Source: Escherichia coli 042
GTDB taxonomy: Bacteria; Pseudomonadota; Gammaproteobacteria; Enterobacterales; Enterobacteriaceae
Direction: 5' to 3' (one strand)
NCBI RefSeq assembly: GCF_000027125.1
Contig: NC_017626.1
DNA: 64,000 nt
Made by a program: the position numbers and the translations under genes. Positions 6,434-49,903 of this stretch are shown piece after piece. The notes under the pieces are model-generated. The model did not search any database. It was not told the origin of the DNA and saw nothing but the letters and a program-made list of their open reading frames with translations. Within the stretch, counting starts at the first letter, position 1; each line of letters begins with the position of its first letter.

Positions 6434-7771
6434 TTAATCTTTGCTTATTGGTGCATCTAAGGGATACGGGTTTTTATGCAGCCGGTTGTAATTCAGCGCA
6501 TACATGGCGGTGATGACCATCAGGGTGACAAATGACCACATAACCTCTTTCGCCCCGGACCCCACCACGGCCCAGATGCAGTAGAGGAAGGCAATGGTAG
6601 TAACTGCCAGATATACCGGGCGTGCTTTACCAAAGTGGCCGTGGCCGAGCAGCAGTAACGCCGCACAGGTGTAAAGATATGGCACCAGTGTAAAGATGAC
6701 CGAGACGGAAGAAACCAGACCGAACTCTTTGGTCGCGTTTGGTGAAATGCTGCTGAGCTGGAAGATGGTCATCAAAATACCGACGATAATCAGCCCCGCC
6801 ACTGGCGTACCCGCTTTATTAACACGGGCAAAAATCGGTGGGAACAGTCCGTCATCGGCAGCGGCTTTCGCCGTTTGACCCGCCAGCAACGTCCAGCCGC
6901 CCAGTGAACCTAAGCAACCCGCAGCTGCGCAGAAGGAAACAATGGCCCCGGCGGTGTCACCCAACGCCATCCGTGCGGCATCACCGAATGGCGAGGCAGA
7001 AACGCGCAGTGCGGCATTAGGGATCATCCCCATAATCGCGGTGGTGGAGAGTACATAGCAAACGGCGGCAATCAATACCCCACCAATGGTGGCGATAGGG
7101 ACGTTGCGTTTCGGGTTTTTCACCACACCTGCGGCAACGGAGGCACTTTCCACACCGATGAACGACCACAGCGTAACGTTAAGGGTACTTTGAATTGCAC
7201 CGAAGGTGCCCAGGCCGCTGACGTTCCATGCCGCCATATAGGTTTCACCACGGAACCAGAACCAGCCAAATACGGCAATCCCGACGATGGGGATCAGCGC
7301 CAGCACGGTGGCAACGGCCTGCACGCGGGTGATCATTTTCGGACCGACAATATTCAGCAGGACGAAGATCCACAGCACCACGACGCAGGTGATGGTTAAT
7401 ACCAATGGATCTTTCAGAATCGGGAAGAAGTAACTTAAATAACCTACGCCAATGACCACCATGGCGATATTGCCGATCCAGCAGGCCAGCCAGTAGAGGA
7501 CGTTGGTTTGATAACCGAGAAACGGCCCAAAGCAGCGACGGGCGTAAGCGTAAGAACCACCAGGACTTGGGTCGAGGAACGACATTTTGGCGTATACCAT
7601 CGAGAGCCCCAGCGCACCGATAATCGTCACCAACCATCCATAAATGGCAATCCCGCCAGTGGAGGCCAGGTTTGCAGGTAACAGAAAAACACCTGACCCC
7701 ATAATATTCCCCGACACCATCAGGGTGACGGGGATTAAGCCCACTTTGTGAGCATCAGCATCCGAAGACAT
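6434..7771 (-). CDS. adiC: AdiC arginine:agmatine antiporter (APC family)
   Basis: 445 aa, [36 protein letters not shown]...; paralogous to CadB in this window. Confidence 0.97.
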
Positions 7772-7907
7772 AATTAAACTCCTGCGAAGGCGAGCTTCGT
7801 GACAATAAATTACGTCATATCATACGCCTGCATTCGATAGTTGAATTATTATCGACCGGGTTATCGCTGATGCCGTTATTAATATAGCTCTTCGTTAAGG
7901 TTAAAAA

Positions 7908-8669
7908 TCAGGCGACAGTGCGTTCTCTGTGCTGACTAACATAATGCAGAGGCGTCATACCGTAGAAGTCTTTAAAGACAGAAATAAAGTACGACGTACT
8001 GTTGTAGCCGCAGGATTGTGATACCTGAGAGATATTTTTACCGTCCATCATTAATTCATTGACGGCATAACGCATGCGGCAGGTGGTGATTATTTGGCTA
8101 TAACTGGTGTTTTCGCTTTTCAGCTTTTTCTTTAACAGACTCGGGCTAAGACATAAACAACCGGCTACCATACTAAGATTCCAGTCTTTGTGGATATCGC
8201 TTTCAATAATTTGATAAACGCTGTCACTTACACAATTACGTAACATATACATCATTAATGAAAGGAATTTTTTACTGTCGAGAAAACGGGATAGCACAGT
8301 GAATAATAATGCACGTGTTCGTTCCTTTTCTGACTCAGTTTCAGCGGGCATCATGCTATGTTGCGCGGCAACGCGAAAGACGTCTGGCGTCAGGCATGGC
8401 AGGGTGAGGATGGGCGTAGCGCTACGTTGCCATACTGGTATTTGCGAGAGATCTTTATTCAGAAACCGGAGGTAATCTTTGATGATGTCGTGACTAATAT
8501 GAGCAACCAAAGTGTTATTAAGAGAGGAGACGTCGATAATATTATTTTCACAATTTAATAACGCCATATGGTTAGCTTTAAGGCTAATAGGTTCTTTCCC
8601 ATTCACCCTTATCCAGACATCTTTTTCAGTCAATAAAACAATACAAGGTTGGTCGCTGCAAATCCTCAT
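7908..8669 (-). CDS. adiY: AdiY AraC-family activator of the adi system
   Basis: 253 aa with a C-terminal AraC HTH (...SQVSQSCGYNSTSYFISVFKDFYGMTPLHY...), located between adiA and adiC as in K-12. Confidence 0.95.
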   Translation of the reverse strand: MRICSDQPCIVLLTEKDVWIRVNGKEPISLKANHMALLNCENNIIDVSSLNNTLVAHISHDIIKDYLRFLNKDLSQIPVWQRSATPILTLPCLTPDVFRVAAQHSMMPAETESEKERTRALLFTVLSRFLDSKKFLSLMMYMLRNCVSDSVYQIIESDIHKDWNLSMVAGCLCLSPSLLKKKLKSENTSYSQIITTCRMRYAVNELMMDGKNISQVSQSCGYNSTSYFISVFKDFYGMTPLHYVSQHRERTVA

Positions 8670-42900: not shown

Positions 42901-43112
42901 TGGTTTACCAGTGTTCCGCCATTCACTGTTTCACCCGGGTGCACAACGATGTCAGCAGCCAGCACCGGGAGTGACGTGACTGCGGCAAGAGACAGTGCAA
43001 CCGCCACACCGCCACGTTTACCCCGTGCGCGGGCCAGTTCGGAGGCAACCACGAAAGCGCCCGTAATGTGATTCCATACCAGCCTGTAGCAGGTATTCAG
43101 ATGTCGTTTCAT
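39993..43112 (-). CDS. flu: Antigen 43 self-associating autotransporter adhesin
   Basis: ORF 39993-43118. Extended autotransporter signal peptide MKRHLNTCYRLVWNHITGAFVVASELARARGKRGG..., a repetitive G/T/N-rich beta-helix passenger, and a C-terminal beta-barrel ending ...QATLNVTF. Confidence 0.95.
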   Translation of the reverse strand: MKRHLNTCYRLVWNHITGAFVVASELARARGKRGGVAVALSLAAVTSLPVLAADIVVHPGETVNGGTLVNHDNQFVSGTADGVTVSTGLELGPDSDDNTGGQQIARGGTARNTTVTANGLQDVMAGGSATDTVISAGGGQNLRGQAYGTVLNGGEQWIHAGGSASGTVINQSGYQTIKHGGQATGTIVNTGAEGGPESENVSSGQMVGGTAESTTINKNGRQVIWSSGMARDTLIYAGGDQTVHGEAHNTRLEGGNQYVHKYGLALNTVINEGGWQVIKEGGTTAHTTINQKGKLQVNAGGKASDVTQNTGGALVTSTAATVTGTNRLGAFSVLAGKADNVVLENGGRLDVLSGHTATNTRVDDGGTLDVRNGGAATTVSMGNGGVLLADSGAAVSGTRSDGTAFRIGGGQADALMLEKGSSFTLNAGDTATDTTVNGGLFTARGGSLAGTTTLNNGATLTLSGKTVNNDTLTIREGDALLQGGALTGNGRVEKSGSGTLTVSNTTLTQKTVNLNEGTLTLNDSTVTTDVIAQRGTALKLTGSTVLNGAIDPTNVTLTSGATWNIPDNATVQSVVDDLSHAGQIHFTSTRTGKFVPATLQVKNLNGQNGTISLRVRPDMAQNNADRLVIDGGRATGKTILNLVNAGNSGTGLATTGKGIQVVEAINGATTEEGAFVQGNMLQAGAFNYTLNRDSDESWYLRSEERYRAEVPLYASMLTQAMDYDRILAGSRSHQTGVNGENNSVRLSIQGGHLGHDNNGGIARGATPESSGSYGFVRLEGDLLRTEVAGMSLTTGVYGAAGHSSVDVKDDDGSRAGTVRDDAGSLGGYMNLTHTSSGLWADIVAQGTRHSMKASSGNNDFRARGWGWLGSLETGLPFSITDNLMLEPRLQYTWQGLSLDDGKDNAGYVKFGHGSAQHVRAGFRLGSHNDMTFGEGTSSRAPLRDSAKHSVRELPVNWWVQPSVIRTFSSRGDMRVGTSTAGSGMTFSPSQNGTSLDLQAGLEARVRENITLGVQAGYAHSVSGSSAEGYNSQATLNVTF

Positions 43113-43143
43113 CAGCATTTCCTTAATCAGAGTGAGGGTGAAT

Positions 43144-43177
43144 AAAAAAGCCGGTATCCACAGATGTGGATACCGGC
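43144..43177 (-). terminator. Intrinsic-terminator-like hairpin inside the flu 5' leader
   Basis: The minus strand reads gccggtatccac-atct-gtggataccggc followed by tttttt, about 30 nt upstream of the flu start codon. Confidence 0.55.
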
Positions 43178-43299
43178 AGGTAAAGGGTTACAGTGCCGGA
43201 GGTCCGGCTGACGGAAGTTTCTGACGTGTGGCTCTGTTGTTCCCTGAATCTCATGTCTGTGTGTATCTGCGCACGTTGCTAACAGGAGTTATTATTAGC

Positions 43300-43345
43300 A
43301 TGACGATCGATATAAACGATCGATAAAATAGGTATCGATCGTTTT
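43300..43345 (-). promoter_or_regulatory. agn43 (flu) phase-variation region: three GATC sites / OxyR operator
   Basis: GATC at 43305-43308, 43318-43321 and 43337-43340, within tgacGATCgatataaacGATCgataaaataggtatcGATCgtttta. Three closely spaced Dam sites overlapping the OxyR site are the known agn43 switch. Confidence 0.75.
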
Positions 43346-43445
43346 ATTCTATTATCAGGCTATTGCACGGACAAGAGAGACAGTAACGAAAACAGCGCTT
43401 TTGTGAGCAGACTCAGAGGCAGGGAGGACATCATCCACAACAGGT

Positions 43446-44318
43446 TCAGAAGAAGATCCAGTTCCATACCGCGCGGGCAACAGAGACCACGGTGTCACGA
43501 ACAGCGCGCAGGGCCGTACGGACAACAGAGGCAACACAGACGCTCTCCGCTGTGTCAAATATCCGGTCCACCGCACCGGTAAACTGTTCACGGGCCTGAG
43601 AGCGGACAGACTCCGTGCGCAGCTCGTCCTGCAGTCGGGTCATCAGGGGGCTGGCGGCATGGTCGGGAAGCGCTGTCATGAGCGCACTGACCAGCGTATC
43701 CAGTTCCCAGCCGGTGCGGGCCGATACGGCAACAACCGGATGTACGGGCCGGAACAGACGGAATACCGCCTCCGTTTTCTCACGAATGTTCTGTTCCTGT
43801 GCGGGAGAAGGCTGAATACCTGCCATATCCCATTCATGGCAGGGTTCCGTTTTGTCAGCCTGCGTCACCACAAACAGCACCTGCTGATGTCCGCACTGCA
43901 GGATGTGTCGCCAGAAATACTCATCCACAGACAGGGCCCGGTCATCGGCTTTAATCAGCCACAGCACCAGGTCCAGTTCAGGCAGAATGTCACGGTACAG
44001 GGCTTCATACTCTGCATCCCTGTCCCGGCTCTCGCCCACCCCGGGCAGGTCAGTGATAACCATGCTGTGACCGTGACCACTCAGACGGAAGCGCTGCACT
44101 TCCCGGGTGCCGGCGTGAACATCACTGACCGGTGTGACCTCCCCCTGAAACAGTGCATTACAGAGTGAAGATTTACCGGCCCCGCTTTTACCCATAATGC
44201 CAATCACGGGTTCGTGACTGGTGAGTTTGCGCAGATGTTCCAGGATGTGACGGGAAAGTGAGTAAGGCAGGGAGGAGAGCGGTTTTTCAATTGCCTCAAT
44301 GGCATCAGACGGATTCAT
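43446..44318 (-). CDS. YeeP/YfjP/YkfA-family GTPase
   Basis: ORF 43446-44357. The ATG at 44318 gives MNPSDAIEAIEKPLSSLPYSL... with the P-loop GIMGKSGAGKSS and a DLPG (G3) motif. Confidence 0.85.
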   Translation of the reverse strand: MNPSDAIEAIEKPLSSLPYSLSRHILEHLRKLTSHEPVIGIMGKSGAGKSSLCNALFQGEVTPVSDVHAGTREVQRFRLSGHGHSMVITDLPGVGESRDRDAEYEALYRDILPELDLVLWLIKADDRALSVDEYFWRHILQCGHQQVLFVVTQADKTEPCHEWDMAGIQPSPAQEQNIREKTEAVFRLFRPVHPVVAVSARTGWELDTLVSALMTALPDHAASPLMTRLQDELRTESVRSQAREQFTGAVDRIFDTAESVCVASVVRTALRAVRDTVVSVARAVWNWIFF

Positions 44319-44427
44319 ACATGTATTCCCGGTGAAAAAAGACAAAACCCCGCGCACCGGAAAGGTGGCGGGGGATTCACGGAGATAATATCTGTCTGAG
44401 ATTATTTAGAATGTAACAGGTAATGAA

Positions 44428-45447
44428 TTACTTCCTTCGCTTGTGTTCAAGATATTTCTCTGTAATCAGCATTTCAAAAAACTCTCCTGTTCTCAGACCG
44501 TAAACAGTTCTGAGCTCATCAAGCATTTCTTTCACATTGCTTCTTATATGTATATTAATGGCCTTTTTACCATCACTCCGATATTTGTCCTTTTGTTTTT
44601 TCTGATGCCAGGCATGATTTATTCGTGTTCTGAACAGTTCAATGGTATCAGGCGCTTCTTTCCATAAAGCAAAGGCGACAAGAGAGGCAAGATAATATTC
44701 TTTCGTTGAAGATGGTATGAACCACCGGGTCACTGGGTTATGTACTGGATGTTTTTCATCCTGTTTTTGTTTCAGTCTTGTCCAGAACCACTGACACATT
44801 TCATCATCGTCAGGAAGGAACCACTTAAACTTTTGACAAGCGCTTTTCTTTTTAAGCCACGCCTGCCTGAGTTCCTCGAGGTATATGCTTTTTGCATTTT
44901 TATTAATTAAAGAATGGCAGGAGTCAAAATATGAAATGATTACTTTTATTCGTTCGTTATGGGATGATGGATTATCCGGAAGGTTACTTTTTTTGTAAGT
45001 ATTTAACGTTTCATCGGTAACTGTTCGTATTTTCCTGACTTCAATTCCGTTTTTTATTCCTGATGAATTATGGTTTATTTTCGGGAATTTTGTATGGTCT
45101 TCCTTCGACAGATAAATAGTAGTCCAGGTAAAGAAAGTCGCAAGTTCGTCAGTTTTCAACCAGAGAAAACTCTCTTCAGGCAGTATTGCCTGCCCTGCAA
45201 TAATTTCAAGTTCATTAATTTCTTTGCTGAGAGCTTCTTCTGCAGTCGAACCAAAAACACCAAAAGAATTGTTTGAAGCTTTATAATACTTTTCTTTTAA
45301 AAACGAATTAACATTTCTGATACAGTTTTGTGGGTTGTCAGGCGCAAACTGAGGGAATTCATTGGGGTATTTGTGATTCAGATATTCGGCATAAAACCGA
45401 CATTTACGGGGATCTTTGCATTTGATAAGCATCTGTTCGTTATTCAT
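44428..45447 (-). CDS. Hypothetical 339-aa AT-rich protein with a putative C-terminal ribbon-helix-helix
   Basis: Long ORF in visibly AT-rich DNA, MNNEQMLIKCKDPRKCRFYAEYLNHKYPNEF.... The C-terminus KAINIHIRSNVKEMLDELRTVYGLRTGEFFEMLITEKYLEHKRRK has a strand-helix-helix pattern. No family recognised. Confidence 0.55.
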   Translation of the reverse strand: MNNEQMLIKCKDPRKCRFYAEYLNHKYPNEFPQFAPDNPQNCIRNVNSFLKEKYYKASNNSFGVFGSTAEEALSKEINELEIIAGQAILPEESFLWLKTDELATFFTWTTIYLSKEDHTKFPKINHNSSGIKNGIEVRKIRTVTDETLNTYKKSNLPDNPSSHNERIKVIISYFDSCHSLINKNAKSIYLEELRQAWLKKKSACQKFKWFLPDDDEMCQWFWTRLKQKQDEKHPVHNPVTRWFIPSSTKEYYLASLVAFALWKEAPDTIELFRTRINHAWHQKKQKDKYRSDGKKAINIHIRSNVKEMLDELRTVYGLRTGEFFEMLITEKYLEHKRRK

Positions 45448-46941
45448 TATCTCACTCCATGTCGCCTCTCTTATAACAAAATCGTCTCAATTTTATTTTG
45501 TCACTAAGTGATTATCAAATGTTTTTGTTGTGATTTGTTTATGTTTTTAAATGTCTATGTCATGTTATCAGTGTTTTTATATAAAGATACATTGATGTTT
45601 TTATGATGGTGAAAAATCATATTTTCTTTTATATTCATTTGGTTATGATTGTTTGTTCTGCATTTGGGGGATGACAGAAAAGAATGGGCTGTGTTGATCA
45701 CATGCGCCGTATGCGCTGTCCAGGTTACAGCGCACCTCAATATTCAGTGTTTTCCTGTTGACTGGCATTGTTAATCTTATGTTTTTGGTTTTGTTTTATT
45801 GTGTGGTTGTGAATGTTGTGTTTGGTTTGATGGTTGAGAAAGAAAAAAGAAGACTATGATGCACTAATCAGGAAATATTTTCGACGCCGGTTGAGTTAAA
45901 AGAACAGATAGAGTGGACAGGTGTTGTGTTAATAGTTTACGGCTGACAGCATTCTTATTTTAATAACAGGTGTTATTATTTATGGATTTATACAGACGAT
46001 ACTCCCGCTAAATAGTCAGGTGATGATGGTCGTTGAGTGGTTTTATAAGCTACGTATAGCTCTGTAAGACTTATTAATTCAACGATGACTACCGTTTATT
46101 GATATACATGTATTCGGGAAATGTCATAAAAAATGTCACGTTGTTTGCAGAATCTTTTGTTTTTTAGTTTTTGATACGCAATGACTAAGCAGGAGGACTC
46201 ACTTTGTTTGTATGCTGACCGTGATCGTCAGTGGAGATGAACAATTGACTCTTACACTGAAAAATATACTCTCTTGTTTTTTATCGTTTATCTGCATGAA
46301 ATAAATAATCTTCAGCATTTTTCATGTGAATTTCATCATCTTACCCTGAATGTTCATTTTATCAGTATGATATTCCTTTGTTTACTGATAAAATTAACCG
46401 ATAAATGTTCTTGTTAAGATTGCCAGAATGACAGTTTTTGCTGATTCCGTGCAATGGAAGAGATATTATATCATCTATTTAAGCAATAAGTTTAATACAA
46501 ATTTCAGAAGATGTGTTGGTGAGTTGATGACTAATTTTCAGAGGGGGATGGAAAAGTGTATGGAATCCCACAAAGAAAAAATCGTTATTGTTCAGTTGAC
46601 GTTTATTTCTGGGTGATGACTCCAGTCAGCAGAATATGTTTTTTTCGATGAATGACCCAATAACTTTTTCGTGAATTTCCACGGAGCATGAAAAGCAAAT
46701 CGTTTTCCGGTCCAGCCGTTTGATGTGGGAACGGGGGCAGATGGTGGTGCTCAATGCGCCGGGTAAATATCAATACGATTTGAGGAACCATTTGCTGGTT
46801 AATCTCTTTCCGATAGCATTGGATGCAGCAATCACTACATCCAACGTGAATAACCATGAATTGCACAGAAACAATATACCTGCGACCCTCTCCGGAAATT
46901 CCGGTATCACTGACTACGTACCGCCCGGGAGTGATTATGAA

Positions 46942-47514
46942 TCAACAGGCGTATAACAGGTACTCGTCAATCATCAGTTCAAGCTCGCGCTTTTCCCGTT
47001 TGCGCGCCACAGCCCAGCTTTCAAGTTCTGCGTGTGATTTATGCTTTAACTCTTCAGTCCAGGGCTGCATGGAGTGGGCGCACATCAGATCATACCAGCA
47101 CAGCCATATCAGGGTGTGGTAGAGATCGCGATCGTCAAAACGCCGGAGCAGACTGTTCAGCCTGTTTGCCAGTCGGCTTTCTCCCAGACGATGTAGTTCA
47201 CTGAGTAAAACACCACCCAGGTTAAAATGTGTAAGTAACATGATTTCATGAGTCTGAATGCTGGTCATTAACCCTTCCTGAATGGCAGGAATGAACGGTG
47301 GCGTTGCCGGGTTGACTACCTGATAGAGTCCCTGTGGTGCCACCGAGATGATGGTGCCTTTTTCCGGCAGAAAAAAGTGGGCCAGGGTCAGGCGATGATA
47401 ACCATGAAGATGCGGAGAGCCCATTCCGTGAGCGACAATAAACCGGGTTACACTTGCCATCCATTTCTGATGCTGGGTGAGCAGCAGATCACACCGGTTT
47501 TCAAGTTTTTGCAT
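46942..47514 (-). CDS. Hypothetical 190-aa protein co-oriented with alpA
   Basis: ORF 46942-47541. The ATG at 47514 is preceded by the SD AAAGGAGAG and lies 85 nt downstream of the alpA stop. MQKLENRCDLLLTQHQKWMASVTRFIVAHGMGSPHLHGYHRL.... No family recognised. Confidence 0.6.
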   Translation of the reverse strand: MQKLENRCDLLLTQHQKWMASVTRFIVAHGMGSPHLHGYHRLTLAHFFLPEKGTIISVAPQGLYQVVNPATPPFIPAIQEGLMTSIQTHEIMLLTHFNLGGVLLSELHRLGESRLANRLNSLLRRFDDRDLYHTLIWLCWYDLMCAHSMQPWTEELKHKSHAELESWAVARKREKRELELMIDEYLLYAC

Positions 47515-47599
47515 AATATTCTCTCCTTTAGCACGCAGCAAAATGCCTCCGGAGGCCGGATAGTGTATTCGCTGCGGTTGAACGGGTAATGGTCAGGAA

Positions 47600-47806
47600 T
47601 TACGGACGGGATTGTGCAATACGCGCCTGCAACCAGGCTTCCACTTCACTTTTCAGCCATCGGGAGCTGCGGCCGAGTTTGATGGGGGCCGGAAAGGCAC
47701 CATCCTTGATGAGCTTGTAAAACCACTTATCGGTTAAGCCGGTCAGTTGAGTGATAAACGCCATGTCGACCATCTGGTCATCCATCAGCGAAACTGGGGT
47801 ATTCAT
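47600..47806 (-). CDS. alpA: AlpA-family phage/island transcriptional regulator (MerR-like HTH)
   Basis: ORF 47600-47878. The ATG at 47806 has the SD GGAGG. MNTPVSLMDDQMVDMAFITQLTGLTDKWFYKLIKDGAFPAPIKLGRSSRWLKSEVEAWL... Confidence 0.85.
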   Translation of the reverse strand: MNTPVSLMDDQMVDMAFITQLTGLTDKWFYKLIKDGAFPAPIKLGRSSRWLKSEVEAWLQARIAQSRP

Positions 47807-48504
47807 GAAAATGTTCCTCCGGATGTTGTTAATCTCAACCGGCGTTGGTGATGAAAAACGCACCACCTTCACTGGCATAACAACCGGGGAGAAACGTAAA
47901 AAATGAGCAGGGGAATATTCCTGTCGGGAGATAAACAGGGAGCATGATGCTGGGATACCCGGTGGCTACCGCGAAACGATGTTTCTCGCGCGTACGCACG
48001 ACAGAGAAGGGATGATTTTCGGGAGGATGAGGGGAAGAACCGTCGTTCTTATAATTGCAGAGTTATTTACGGGGCGGTTACGGTGGGGCAGCTCGTGCCT
48101 TGTGGGCAGGGACAGGTATCACCGATGGGATAAGACTGTCTGATTGGTATTATAAATATATAAGAGAGATCAAACACATGAGTTCATATCTGTGAAATAA
48201 ACACTGTGAGTGTGATCAGTGGGTATGAGAACGCAGTAGCAACAGATTACGTTGTACTCACAGGGCTATCCCTGATAGCTGGCGTATAACCTGCGTATAT
48301 AAAACGTACCTGCAACACACGTGAACAGAGTGCATTAAGCATCCGTCTGAGCGGTAAACGTATCCGACCTGGTGAGTGACAGTCTGAGAGACCGGTTAAG
48401 TGGTGGTGCGGGAGTAATGAGTTTGGGGTGGGTACCAGAATGCCAGTCAGGTGCGGTATGCTGGCAGTATCACGTTAATTGCAGCATAAAGTGATGAGAG
48501 GCTA

Positions 48505-48717
48505 ATGGAAGTTAAAACCAAAGAAGACTGGCTGTATCAGTTCCGTCGTTGTTCATCCCGGGAGACGCTGGAAAAAGTGATTTCCCACACACGTTATAAA
48601 CTTACCCTTGCGGAGCTGGAAGCCTTCAACTCTGCGGTTGATCACCGACTGGCAGAACTAACCATGAACAAACTTTACGATCGCGTTCCGGCTTCTGTCT
48701 GGAAATATGTTACCTGA
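48505..48717 (+). CDS. Hha/YmoA-family H-NS co-regulator paralogue
   Basis: 70 aa. ...[14 protein letters not shown]...[36 protein letters not shown] matches by eye the Hha signature RRC..TLERVIE...[27 protein letters not shown]. Confidence 0.85.
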   Translation: [70 protein letters not shown]

Positions 48718-48956
48718 ACGTTCGGTAATCACAGCGGTATTGTGCCGGGCGTTATATGCCTGTGATTCTTTTGCTCTTCTCTGGTTGCTGCAAAGCTGAA
48801 TATGTTCCTGTTGTTGGAGGCCGAGGTAATACCGGGAACGTTAAGCGGTATAGCGACAACAAAGAATTCGAAATCAAAAGGGAATGGTGTACGGAGGTGC
48901 GGGCGGTAATGGGCCGATTTTCGGGCATTACCGACCTCTGCTGAGGTTTTCTCGTA

Positions 48957-49130
48957 TTAGCCGGGGATCCGGTGCGTTGAATATTGACGGCATAAACCGA
49001 CAGGCAGAGTCAGCACCAGCAGTGACGTCAGTAGACAGCGCCGACGATCGGTATTCCGGTAATGGGCAACATCCGTATTATGAGTAATTGCCTTACCACA
49101 ATCCCTGCACACCGTTTTGTGTATCACCAT
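48957..49130 (-). CDS. Possible unannotated 57-aa small protein (CxxC + one TM helix)
   Basis: Manual translation gives MVIHKTVCRDCGKAITHNTDVAHYRNTDRRRCLLTSLLVLTLPVGLCRQYSTHRIPG*. Strong SD GAGGAGGGAG immediately upstream of the ATG at 49130. Below the ORF-track cutoff. No homology evidence. Confidence 0.3.
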   Translation of the reverse strand: MVIHKTVCRDCGKAITHNTDVAHYRNTDRRRCLLTSLLVLTLPVGLCRQYSTHRIPG

Positions 49131-49333
49131 AGCTCCCTCCTCACAGTCTTATCTGTAACCGGTTTTTGGCATTAAAAAAACAACGCTGAAAATTCAGCCG
49201 TCAGTCCGGAGACGACAATCGGGTTATCACAGAGTGCCTGAGATATTGCCCGGTTGGAGGTCACTTCAGGGACTCTGCGCATTTTTTACGGCGTGGTTAT
49301 TCCGTATGAACGAAACCATACGGAGATTTAACC

Positions 49334-49903
49334 ATGACATACGAGTACAACCCCTTCTGGCAACAACGTATCCGTGAGACGGTGCTGCGCGCACTGGATG
49401 TTCATCCCCGTCTGACGGCATTGCGGATTGACCTGCGTCTCCCGGATGTACCGGCAGCAACTGACGCAGCAGTGATATCCCGCTTCATCAATGCCCTGAA
49501 AGCCCGAATCGATGCTTATCAGAAGCGTAAGCGCCGTGAAGGCAAACGCGTGCATCCCACAACCCTGCATTACGTCTGGGCCCGGGAGTTTGGGGAGTGC
49601 AAAGGTAAAAAACACTATCACCTGATGCTGCTGGTCAACCGGGATACCTGGTGTCGTGCCGGCGATTACCGCGCTCCGGGATCACTGGCCGGGATGATTA
49701 AACAGGCGTGGTGCAGTGCCCTGGGAGTGGATACCGGAGATCATACCACGCTGGCGCATTTTCCGGTCAGGCCGGCGGTGTGGCTGGAACGCGATGATGA
49801 CACCGGCTTTCAGCAGGTGCTGGAGCGTGCTGACTATCTGGCGAAGGAGAGTACCAAAGCTTACGGCACCGGTGAGCGCAACTTTGGCTGCAGTCGTGGC
49901 TGA
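49334..49903 (+). CDS. Inovirus Gp2-family protein (YagK/YfjJ family)
   Basis: 189 aa, MTYEYNPFWQQRIRETVLRALDVHPRLTALRIDLRLPD...HYVWAREFGECKGKKHYHLMLLVNRDTW...; pattern recalled from CP4-6 YagK / CP4-57 YfjJ. Confidence 0.75.
   Translation: MTYEYNPFWQQRIRETVLRALDVHPRLTALRIDLRLPDVPAATDAAVISRFINALKARIDAYQKRKRREGKRVHPTTLHYVWAREFGECKGKKHYHLMLLVNRDTWCRAGDYRAPGSLAGMIKQAWCSALGVDTGDHTTLAHFPVRPAVWLERDDDTGFQQVLERADYLAKESTKAYGTGERNFGCSRG

Follow-up and report, generated by a model that had tools for sequence, protein, structure and literature searches.

What occupies the interval between alpA and the YeeP-like GTPase gene in a CP4-type island of Escherichia coli 042, and what might it do there? In the 64,000-nucleotide (nt) stretch of contig NC_017626.1 considered here, hereafter the window, two open reading frames (ORFs) fill this interval and are named ORF190 and ORF339 after the lengths of their products in amino acids (aa). 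An initial annotation, made from the letters of the sequence, had regarded the interval as a variable slot and, on account of their position, the two genes as candidates for defence or regulatory cargo. The comparative evidence argues that ORF190 and ORF339 belong to the recurring backbone of the CP4-type islands, a widespread enterobacterial family, and are not interchangeable anti-phage cargo. ORF339 is read here, with a probability of roughly 0.55, as an autoregulated transcription factor whose C-terminal, CopB-like ribbon-helix-helix (RHH) tail would bind a palindrome over its own promoter and whose novel N-terminal domain would serve oligomerization or signal input.

CP4-type modules are among the commonest accessory DNA in E. 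coli and carry the genes for Ag43, antirestriction, RadC and CbtA; to our knowledge, almost nothing is known of how they are controlled. A positionally fixed and probably autoregulated regulator at the head of an island arm, a protein tied to AlpA and a covarying leader RNA would provide handles on island regulation. They also correct a tempting inference, as the interval from alpA to the GTPase can hold unknown genes other than defence cargo. ORF339 is best classed as an autoregulator of the RHH/CopB-like kind joined to a novel domain, and ORF190 as an AlpA-linked family.

Backbone positions of ORF190 and ORF339

The sequence of the window matches E. coli 55989 at 100% identity, and the annotation of that strain by the NCBI Prokaryotic Genome Annotation Pipeline (PGAP) was transferred onto the window coordinates (Table 1). 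alpA, ORF190, ORF339 and the GTPase gene follow one another in this order on the minus strand. The two ORFs were well described from the outset: the 190-aa frame begins exactly 85 nt past alpA behind a strong Shine-Dalgarno (SD) sequence, AAGGAG located 8 nt before the ATG, and the 339-aa frame follows after 1494 nt of DNA at 35.9% GC, its own GC content being 37% as compared with 50–58% in the neighbouring genes. The length and composition of the AT-rich stretch were given correctly, but an IS1 remnant had been overlooked. That neither protein is recognizable was likewise confirmed, as nothing scored above threshold for either of them in Pfam, NCBIfam, PADLOC or PHROGs. Both are nonetheless real genes under purifying selection, because the ratio of nonsynonymous to synonymous substitution rates (dN/dS) is low among E. 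coli variants (0.17–0.25 for ORF339 and 0.04–0.14 for ORF190) and because homologues are found in other genera.

Relatives of ORF339 occur at 58% identity in Edwardsiella, at about 49% in Rahnella and Yersinia, at 30% in Serratia and at 25–33% in Morganella, Hafnia, Enterobacter, Siccibacter, Alteromonas, Vibrio and Ferrimonas, as well as on 21 large plasmids of Klebsiella and E. coli, among them a Klebsiella IncFIB/HI1B plasmid; no phage record encoding a relative was found. In every locus examined, from more than 15 genera, from metagenome contigs and from plasmids, the right arm of the element begins with the ORF339 relative. This arm consists of the ORF339-like gene, the GTPase and/or DUF932, and the antirestriction, RadC and CbeA/CbtA genes: what lies 3′ of the relative is either the GTPase, about 100 nt further on, or the series YfjT/DUF932, antirestriction, RadC and CbeA/CbtA, and the relatives in Serratia and on plasmids have no adjoining GTPase. 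The left arm comprises a Gp2/YfjJ-like gene, alpA, ORF190 and/or zinc-ribbon genes, and variable cargo. The Gp2/YfjJ-like gene, usually accompanied by alpA, stands divergent to the ORF339 relative in most loci with enough flanking sequence: those of Edwardsiella, Rahnella, Yersinia and Serratia, the plasmid loci, and 8 of the 11 genome loci that are more distant. The order found in E. coli, with alpA and ORF190 pointing at ORF339, is derived. Both families are present together in Yersinia, in two of the comparison loci (L020 and L041) and in E. coli, and each is also found without the other.

Within E. coli, DNA of ORF190 was detected in 1014 and that of ORF339 in 255 of 5426 complete genomes. 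Sequence from a 3.6-kb query that took in alpA and the leader of the GTPase was found in 4236 of the 5426 genomes, at a median of four places per genome; ORF190 is present without ORF339 in about 750 genomes, and the GTPase in thousands of islands without ORF339. When the window is aligned by blastn with strain ABU 83972, homology is lost 19 nt past the stop codon of ORF190 and regained 16 nt past that of ORF339. Strains ABU 83972, ETEC4067 and 20KM2228 carry alpA and ORF190, followed by a yfjI-family gene that runs on the other strand and then by the GTPase, with no ORF339, and in the sampled E. coli genomes yfjI and ORF339 are the only two alternatives for this slot. The notion of a variable slot is thus upheld for the replaceable block of Table 1 in E. 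coli, but not for ORF190, which lies outside the block, nor for the position of ORF339, which is fixed across more than 15 genera.

An IS1 remnant is found between ORF190 and the region upstream of ORF339 in all ORF339-bearing copies examined from E. coli, Shigella and Escherichia ruysiae, and it is longer, 617 bp, in strain E2 (L016, 2255–2871). Because the remnant sits at the same place in all of these copies, it points to a single ancestral IS1-associated junction. It probably marks the rearrangement that placed alpA-ORF190 beside the upstream region of ORF339.

An exhaustive search recovered 102 representative relatives of ORF190 at E ≤ 1e-3, about a dozen of them full length. The relatives always lie in the Gp2/YfjJ-alpA operon of the left arm, after alpA and before, after or in place of zinc-ribbon genes. 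The alpA gene itself belongs to the AlpA family, with 36.6 bits against PF05930 (gathering threshold 21; E 4.3e-9), and is labelled a helix-turn-helix regulator by PGAP. Its adjacency to ORF190 is retained in Yersinia and in several metagenomic contigs, and the co-transcription of the two genes suggested in the initial annotation is plausible; a terminator scan found no strong terminator on the minus strand of the spacer between them. The structural model of ORF190 comprises an N-terminal helix, a beta-hairpin and a seven-helix bundle, the family has the conserved motifs G(V/I)LLSEC.RL and LCW..L, and comparison of the AlphaFold model with the PDB returned no fold match. The sole functional clue is the strict linkage to alpA, and ORF190 is perhaps an AlpA-coupled accessory protein with a role in excision or regulation.

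The ORF339 tail and its candidate operator

The C-terminal tail of ORF339 (KAINIHIR...ITEKY, residues 295–332) had been likened at the outset to an RHH domain, and the signals that bear on this likeness are mutually consistent and all sub-threshold. The only family that the tail resembles is CopB/RepA2 of the IncFII plasmids R1 and R100 (PF10723 RepB-RCR_reg; NCBIfam PRK13702), which we take to belong to the RHH clan. The last 57–60 residues reach 17.5 bits against PF10723 (E 0.004) and the whole protein 14.2 bits, both short of the gathering threshold of 21, in an alignment that covers profile positions 38–76 of 81. PF10723 is also the only family matched by 7 of 7 ORF339-family tails, each time below threshold; precomputed PF10723.16 matches are listed for six ORF339 homologues, and the NCBIfam RepA2 model gives E 0.014 for the tail. 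In PDB sequence-profile searches the tail aligns weakly with the RHH protein SvtR (2kel, E 0.62), and apart from this alignment the searches returned only noise at E > 0.03. As a matter of pattern, the tail has the expected strand, K-A-I-N-(I/T)-(H/Y)-(I/V)-R, in which hydrophobic and polar residues alternate, followed by VKEMLDEL..Y(G/N)(L/M)(R/S) with a G/N-x-R/S turn before the second helix. N298 is invariant in 8 of 8 family members, and R302 is conserved save in the Serratia member. The N-terminal 290 or so residues are all-alpha and unrelated to any known partner domain; the AlphaFold model of ORF339 found no fold match in the PDB, nor was an enzymatic or effector fold detected. Some copies of ORF339 are already called “transcriptional regulator” by NCBI.

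Across genera, the regions upstream of ORF339 relatives are unalignable except for one element, AATCACT(T/G)AGTGA. An exact 11-bp palindrome, TCACTNAGTGA, stands 62–77 nt 5′ of the start codon in six lineages (E. coli, Edwardsiella, Rahnella, Yersinia, L020 and L022); the perfect palindrome extends to 19 bp in Yersinia, and L021 has a copy with one mismatch. Nine variants from E. coli, Shigella and E. ruysiae have it at −64. The palindrome is present as a single exact copy in the window and in each of the 3- to 21-kb loci, against a chance expectation of about 1e-4 per 160-nt upstream region, and it is absent from L003 and L011, in which alpA is present without an ORF339 relative. In the window it fills the 17-nt spacer of TTGATA/TAAAAT, the best-scoring sigma70-like site of the region (10 of 12 positions).

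A mechanism can be proposed from these elements. ORF190 would be translated from the alpA transcript. The RHH tail of ORF339 would dimerize and bind the palindrome TCACTTAGTGA, which overlaps the predicted core promoter of the gene, and binding would repress ORF339 transcription, with the all-alpha N-terminal domain of about 290 residues contributing oligomerization or signal input. Transcripts coming from ORF339 would then enter the structured leader that precedes the GTPase, which would gate the GTPase and the genes downstream.

CopB, a tetrameric promoter repressor, is among the closest parallels: it is small and oligomeric, and the promoter that it represses belongs to a mobile element (PMC5717011). 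However, CopB is a stand-alone protein of about 86 aa that belongs to a plasmid replicon, whereas ORF339 belongs to the arm of a chromosomal island, bears the motif C-terminal to an all-alpha domain of 290 aa without known fold and matches the family below its gathering score. With the RHH repressors Arc, CopG, MetJ and SvtR, and with HicB-type proteins that have a C-terminal RHH, ORF339 shares the strand-helix-turn-helix sequence pattern of its tail and a palindromic candidate operator over its own predicted promoter; it differs from them in the helical AlphaFold2 monomer and in having no adjoining toxin-like partner specific to it. No small partner gene that co-varies with ORF339 was found, as would be expected were it the RHH antitoxin of a type II toxin-antitoxin system; the downstream gene is a GTPase that is common without ORF339.

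Several points weigh against autoregulation by ORF339. The RHH assignment is sub-threshold both in Pfam and in the PDB search, and the AlphaFold2 monomer draws residues 294–316 as a helix and not as a strand and a helix, with predicted local distance difference test scores of 58–73; a monomer model cannot form the dimeric ribbon of an RHH protein. The Rahnella homologue (P0005) has a precomputed PF10723.16 match at E ≤ 1e-5, but full-length hmmscan with PF10723.15 finds none at E ≤ 1 and only the isolated tail matches, which may be an effect of the model version. That ORF339 binds the palindrome is something we infer from sequence, and 11 bp is short compared with the tetramer-type operators that many RHH proteins bind. 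The promoter is no more than a match to the consensus, from a scan that was not enriched over shuffles, and in other genera the best −10 element is further downstream, so the palindrome would overlap the −35 element and not the spacer. The distant subfamily (Serratia, a Klebsiella plasmid and Enterobacter) retains only the half-site AGTGAC, which could be a −35 element, together with a different inverted repeat, and Vibrio has TACTTAGTA. Such a pattern of half-sites and variant operators would fit co-evolving pairs of regulator and operator, and would also allow a −35 element. Lastly, autoregulation by ORF339 leaves ORF190 without a proposed function.

About 110 nt upstream, members of this distant subfamily (Serratia, Enterobacter, Hafnia and Klebsiella plasmids; L013, L032–L035, L041 and L044) display CTACCAGATGTGTTTTTNAGTGAC...TACTGT...ACTAC-N-TGTAGT.

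The main rival to autoregulation is that the palindrome has another reader, as a promoter element or as the site of AlpA or of a host protein, and that ORF339 is an adaptor, a sensor or a regulator of distant targets. The sub-threshold RHH evidence favours it, as does the −35-like appearance of the right half-site AGTGAC, the sole part retained in the distant subfamily. There is also a precedent in Pseudomonas aeruginosa, where the AlpA element lies between −35 and −10 and a terminator just before the start codon of the target (PMC7969949); in the window, likewise, the palindrome is in the predicted promoter spacer and a terminator precedes the GTPase. However, the element onto which P. aeruginosa AlpA loads is non-palindromic and takes up one protomer (PMC9371919), whereas the perfect two-fold symmetry of the palindrome, up to 19 bp in Yersinia, fits a symmetric dimer. 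Moreover, a near-identical alpA is found in islands without the palindrome, such as that of ABU 83972, and the palindrome strictly co-occurs with close relatives of ORF339. Another reader of the palindrome is therefore possible, although doubtful.

ORF339 could also serve in replication control, as a CopB-like regulator of the excised element that acts on the divergent, rolling-circle Rep-like Gp2/YfjJ gene and on the alpA operon, the AT-rich gap being an origin. Its one family resemblance is to plasmid replication repressors, and it diverges from a REP_ORF2-G2P/YagK_YfjJ protein in the 8 of 11 distant loci and in the genera counted above. Furthermore, a non-coding AT-rich stretch of 0.56–1.7 kb precedes the ORF339 relatives in every genus and on plasmids, and separates ORF339-like from Gp2-like genes. 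Yet the palindrome is 62–77 nt from ORF339 and 0.5–1.5 kb from the Gp2 start, near which the search for a second operator gave nothing significant beyond chance, and ORF339 of E. coli, parted from Gp2 by the IS1-associated rearrangement, is still under purifying selection. Across genera the gap has no conserved sequence, repeats, ORF or Rfam match, palindrome aside; among E. coli variants its conservation is moderate and no block stands out. A role of ORF339 in the control of replication is unlikely. For the gap itself, an origin and silencing by H-NS/Hha are both possibilities.

An Hha-family modulator (PGAP: hha) is encoded at 48505–48717 on the plus strand, divergent from alpA, and may bear on silencing of the AT-rich region by H-NS/Hha.

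The case for defence cargo

The interval of K-12 CP4-57 is bounded by the same families, alpA and a YfjP-type GTPase. Between alpA and yfjP it holds yfjI-yfjJ-abpBA-yfjM-rnlAB, as the initial annotation had in essence stated, that is, recognized defence genes (abpAB and rnlAB) and the Gp2-like yfjJ, with neither ORF190 nor ORF339. It is this precedent that recommends one or both proteins as anti-phage or abortive-infection cargo of a variable slot. The replaceability of the ORF339 block in E. coli, the low GC content of ORF339 and its patchy distribution (255 of 5426 genomes) tend in the same direction, and in L011 a relative of ORF190 lies directly 5′ of BrxR-GmrSD and a type I restriction-modification system.

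Nevertheless, a search of PADLOC-DB v2 returned 0 families at E ≤ 1 for ORF339 and ORF190, and neither enzymatic nor effector folds were detected. The recognizable defence systems of these elements sit elsewhere, at the far end of the alpA arm, beyond the zinc-ribbon genes or after ORF190: Gabija and TIR in Rahnella, BrxR-GmrSD and type I restriction-modification in L011, and BREX in E. coli PSJ-42. ORF190, outside the replaceable block, is tied to alpA and not to cargo, and the E. coli slot, in the genomes sampled, offers two alternatives only. Over more than 15 genera ORF339 holds one backbone position irrespective of the cargo, and because this position is fixed across genera, it reads as a regulatory backbone gene rather than as defence cargo. 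The assignment to defence by position is not supported by these observations, and a defensive role for either protein is now very unlikely.

That the two genes are decaying remnants without present function is scarcely credible, for although the ORF339 frame is damaged in some E. coli copies, by a frameshift, an internal stop, interruption by IS1 or truncation, and although the IS1 remnant and AT-rich DNA adjoin, dN/dS is 0.04–0.25 (on which ground the idea of pseudogenes was rejected for both), full-length homologues persist at 25–58% identity across genera and the AlphaFold2 models are confident.

A conserved leader RNA before the GTPase

ORF339 and the GTPase gene are separated by 109 nt. 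Of these, a leader of about 85 nt before the GTPase start is conserved across genera, including in islands without ORF339. In the window it is made of a box, TCAGACAGATATTA (44386–44399), a GC-rich hairpin (44348–44373) and a U-run (44335–44347), and an outer helix (44376–44385 with 44327–44336) pairs the 3′ part of the box to the SD region. An invariant box, TCAGAYAGATATTA, is found in the leader of every YeeP/YfjP-family GTPase examined, the hairpin and U-run end 12–18 nt 5′ of the start codon, and the leader of K-12 yfjP is a recognizable variant with a related box, hairpin and U-run. The individual folds have z-scores of −3.2 to −6.3, and a covariance model derived from the E. coli sequence detects the leader once, and only once, ahead of each GTPase in 14 loci. 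In the covariance-model alignment, 91% of cells are paired and 13 of 19 pairs are compensatory, with 0 of 500 shuffles as good and slid controls at about 50%, statistics that are to be read with caution, since the model itself guided the alignment; a plain MAFFT alignment of the leaders did not serve for RNAalifold, and realignment with the covariance model was required. The leader is an intrinsic terminator nested in an SD-sequestering helix, conserved and covarying.

Since the terminator leaves no space for a promoter behind it, expression of the GTPase must depend on read-through, and this makes antitermination of the AlpA type an attractive idea. By analogy, the leader may be conjectured to be a target of such antitermination. 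The island alpA is in the same Pfam family as P. aeruginosa AlpA, a Q-like antiterminator, and E. coli CP4-57 AlpA. In P. aeruginosa, alpB and PA0807 have a terminator immediately before the start codon, as in the GTPase leader (PMC7969949). However, the leader box is unlike the P. aeruginosa element GGGACGN5GGTA, and no AlpA binding element has been defined for enterobacterial proteins. Compared with the two genes themselves, the leader RNA, with the link to AlpA that it may have, is the more promising lead. In a bolder and rather improbable scheme, ORF339, AlpA and the leader would make up a two-tier switch of the right arm (GTPase, Ag43, antirestriction, RadC and CbeA/CbtA), in which ORF339, a signal-responsive RHH repressor with a new sensor domain, would set the entry of transcription and the leader would be a target of antitermination or riboregulation that is new to description, on which AlpA may act. 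Literature searches on the protein accessions and on the regulation of YeeP/YfjP found nothing useful.

Table 1. Features of the alpA–GTPase interval in the window, with counterparts in comparison loci.
Feature	Position	Strand	Description and basis
alpA (68 aa)	47600–47806	−	AlpA/excisionase-type helix-turn-helix; Pfam PF05930 Phage_AlpA
alpA–ORF190 spacer, 85 nt	47515–47599	−	AAGGAG SD 8 nt before ORF190 ATG; read from sequence
ORF190	46942–47514	−	190 aa, AlpA-linked protein
IS1 transposase remnant (pseudogene)	46626–46770	−	PGAP annotation in 55989
AT-rich DNA 5′ of ORF339, 1.18 kb, 33.5% GC	45448–46625	−	No Rfam match, no convincing ORF
Palindrome TCACTTAGTGA, candidate operator	45501–45511		64 nt 5′ of ORF339 ATG
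Sigma70-like promoter match, TTGATA-17-TAAAAT	45490–45518	−	Palindrome occupies spacer; pattern match only
ORF339	44428–45447	−	339 aa, all-alpha, C-terminal DNA-binding-like tail
ORF339 residues 294–334, CopB/RepA2-like tail	44446–44568	−	RHH sequence pattern; sub-threshold PF10723
Replaceable block in E. coli islands	44413–46922		IS1 remnant, 1.1 kb AT-rich DNA and ORF339; blastn breakpoints
Conserved GTPase leader	44319–44402	−	Alignment, folding, covariance model
YeeP/YfjP-family GTPase (290 aa from PGAP start)	43446–44318	−	Pfam MMR_HSR1 E 3e-15; PGAP
AT-rich upstream stretches, other loci	L005 8912–10000; L008 8444–10000; L013 8388–10000; L044 5308–6982		
Leader copies, other loci	L003 12432–12519; L005 11008–11103; L008 10975–11060; L018 6984–7069; L011 7358–7444; L041 962–1046		

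Two observations concern the surroundings of the leader. In L011, an island without ORF339, a 246-aa protein (7453–8193, minus strand; Pfam UCP007319) is encoded directly 5′ of the GTPase leader and has an N-terminal RHH-like motif, IDRYAKSYGISRSKVISDLLD; profile comparison gave a probability of 0.6%, and it was rejected as an ORF339 homologue. In the window, an Rfam covariance scan of 43000–49500 placed neither the AT-rich gap nor the GTPase leader in a family, and its single match was the small RNA IS102/IsrC, full length at 255 bits (43137–43342, minus strand), which lies between the GTPase and Ag43, as in K-12 CP4-44.

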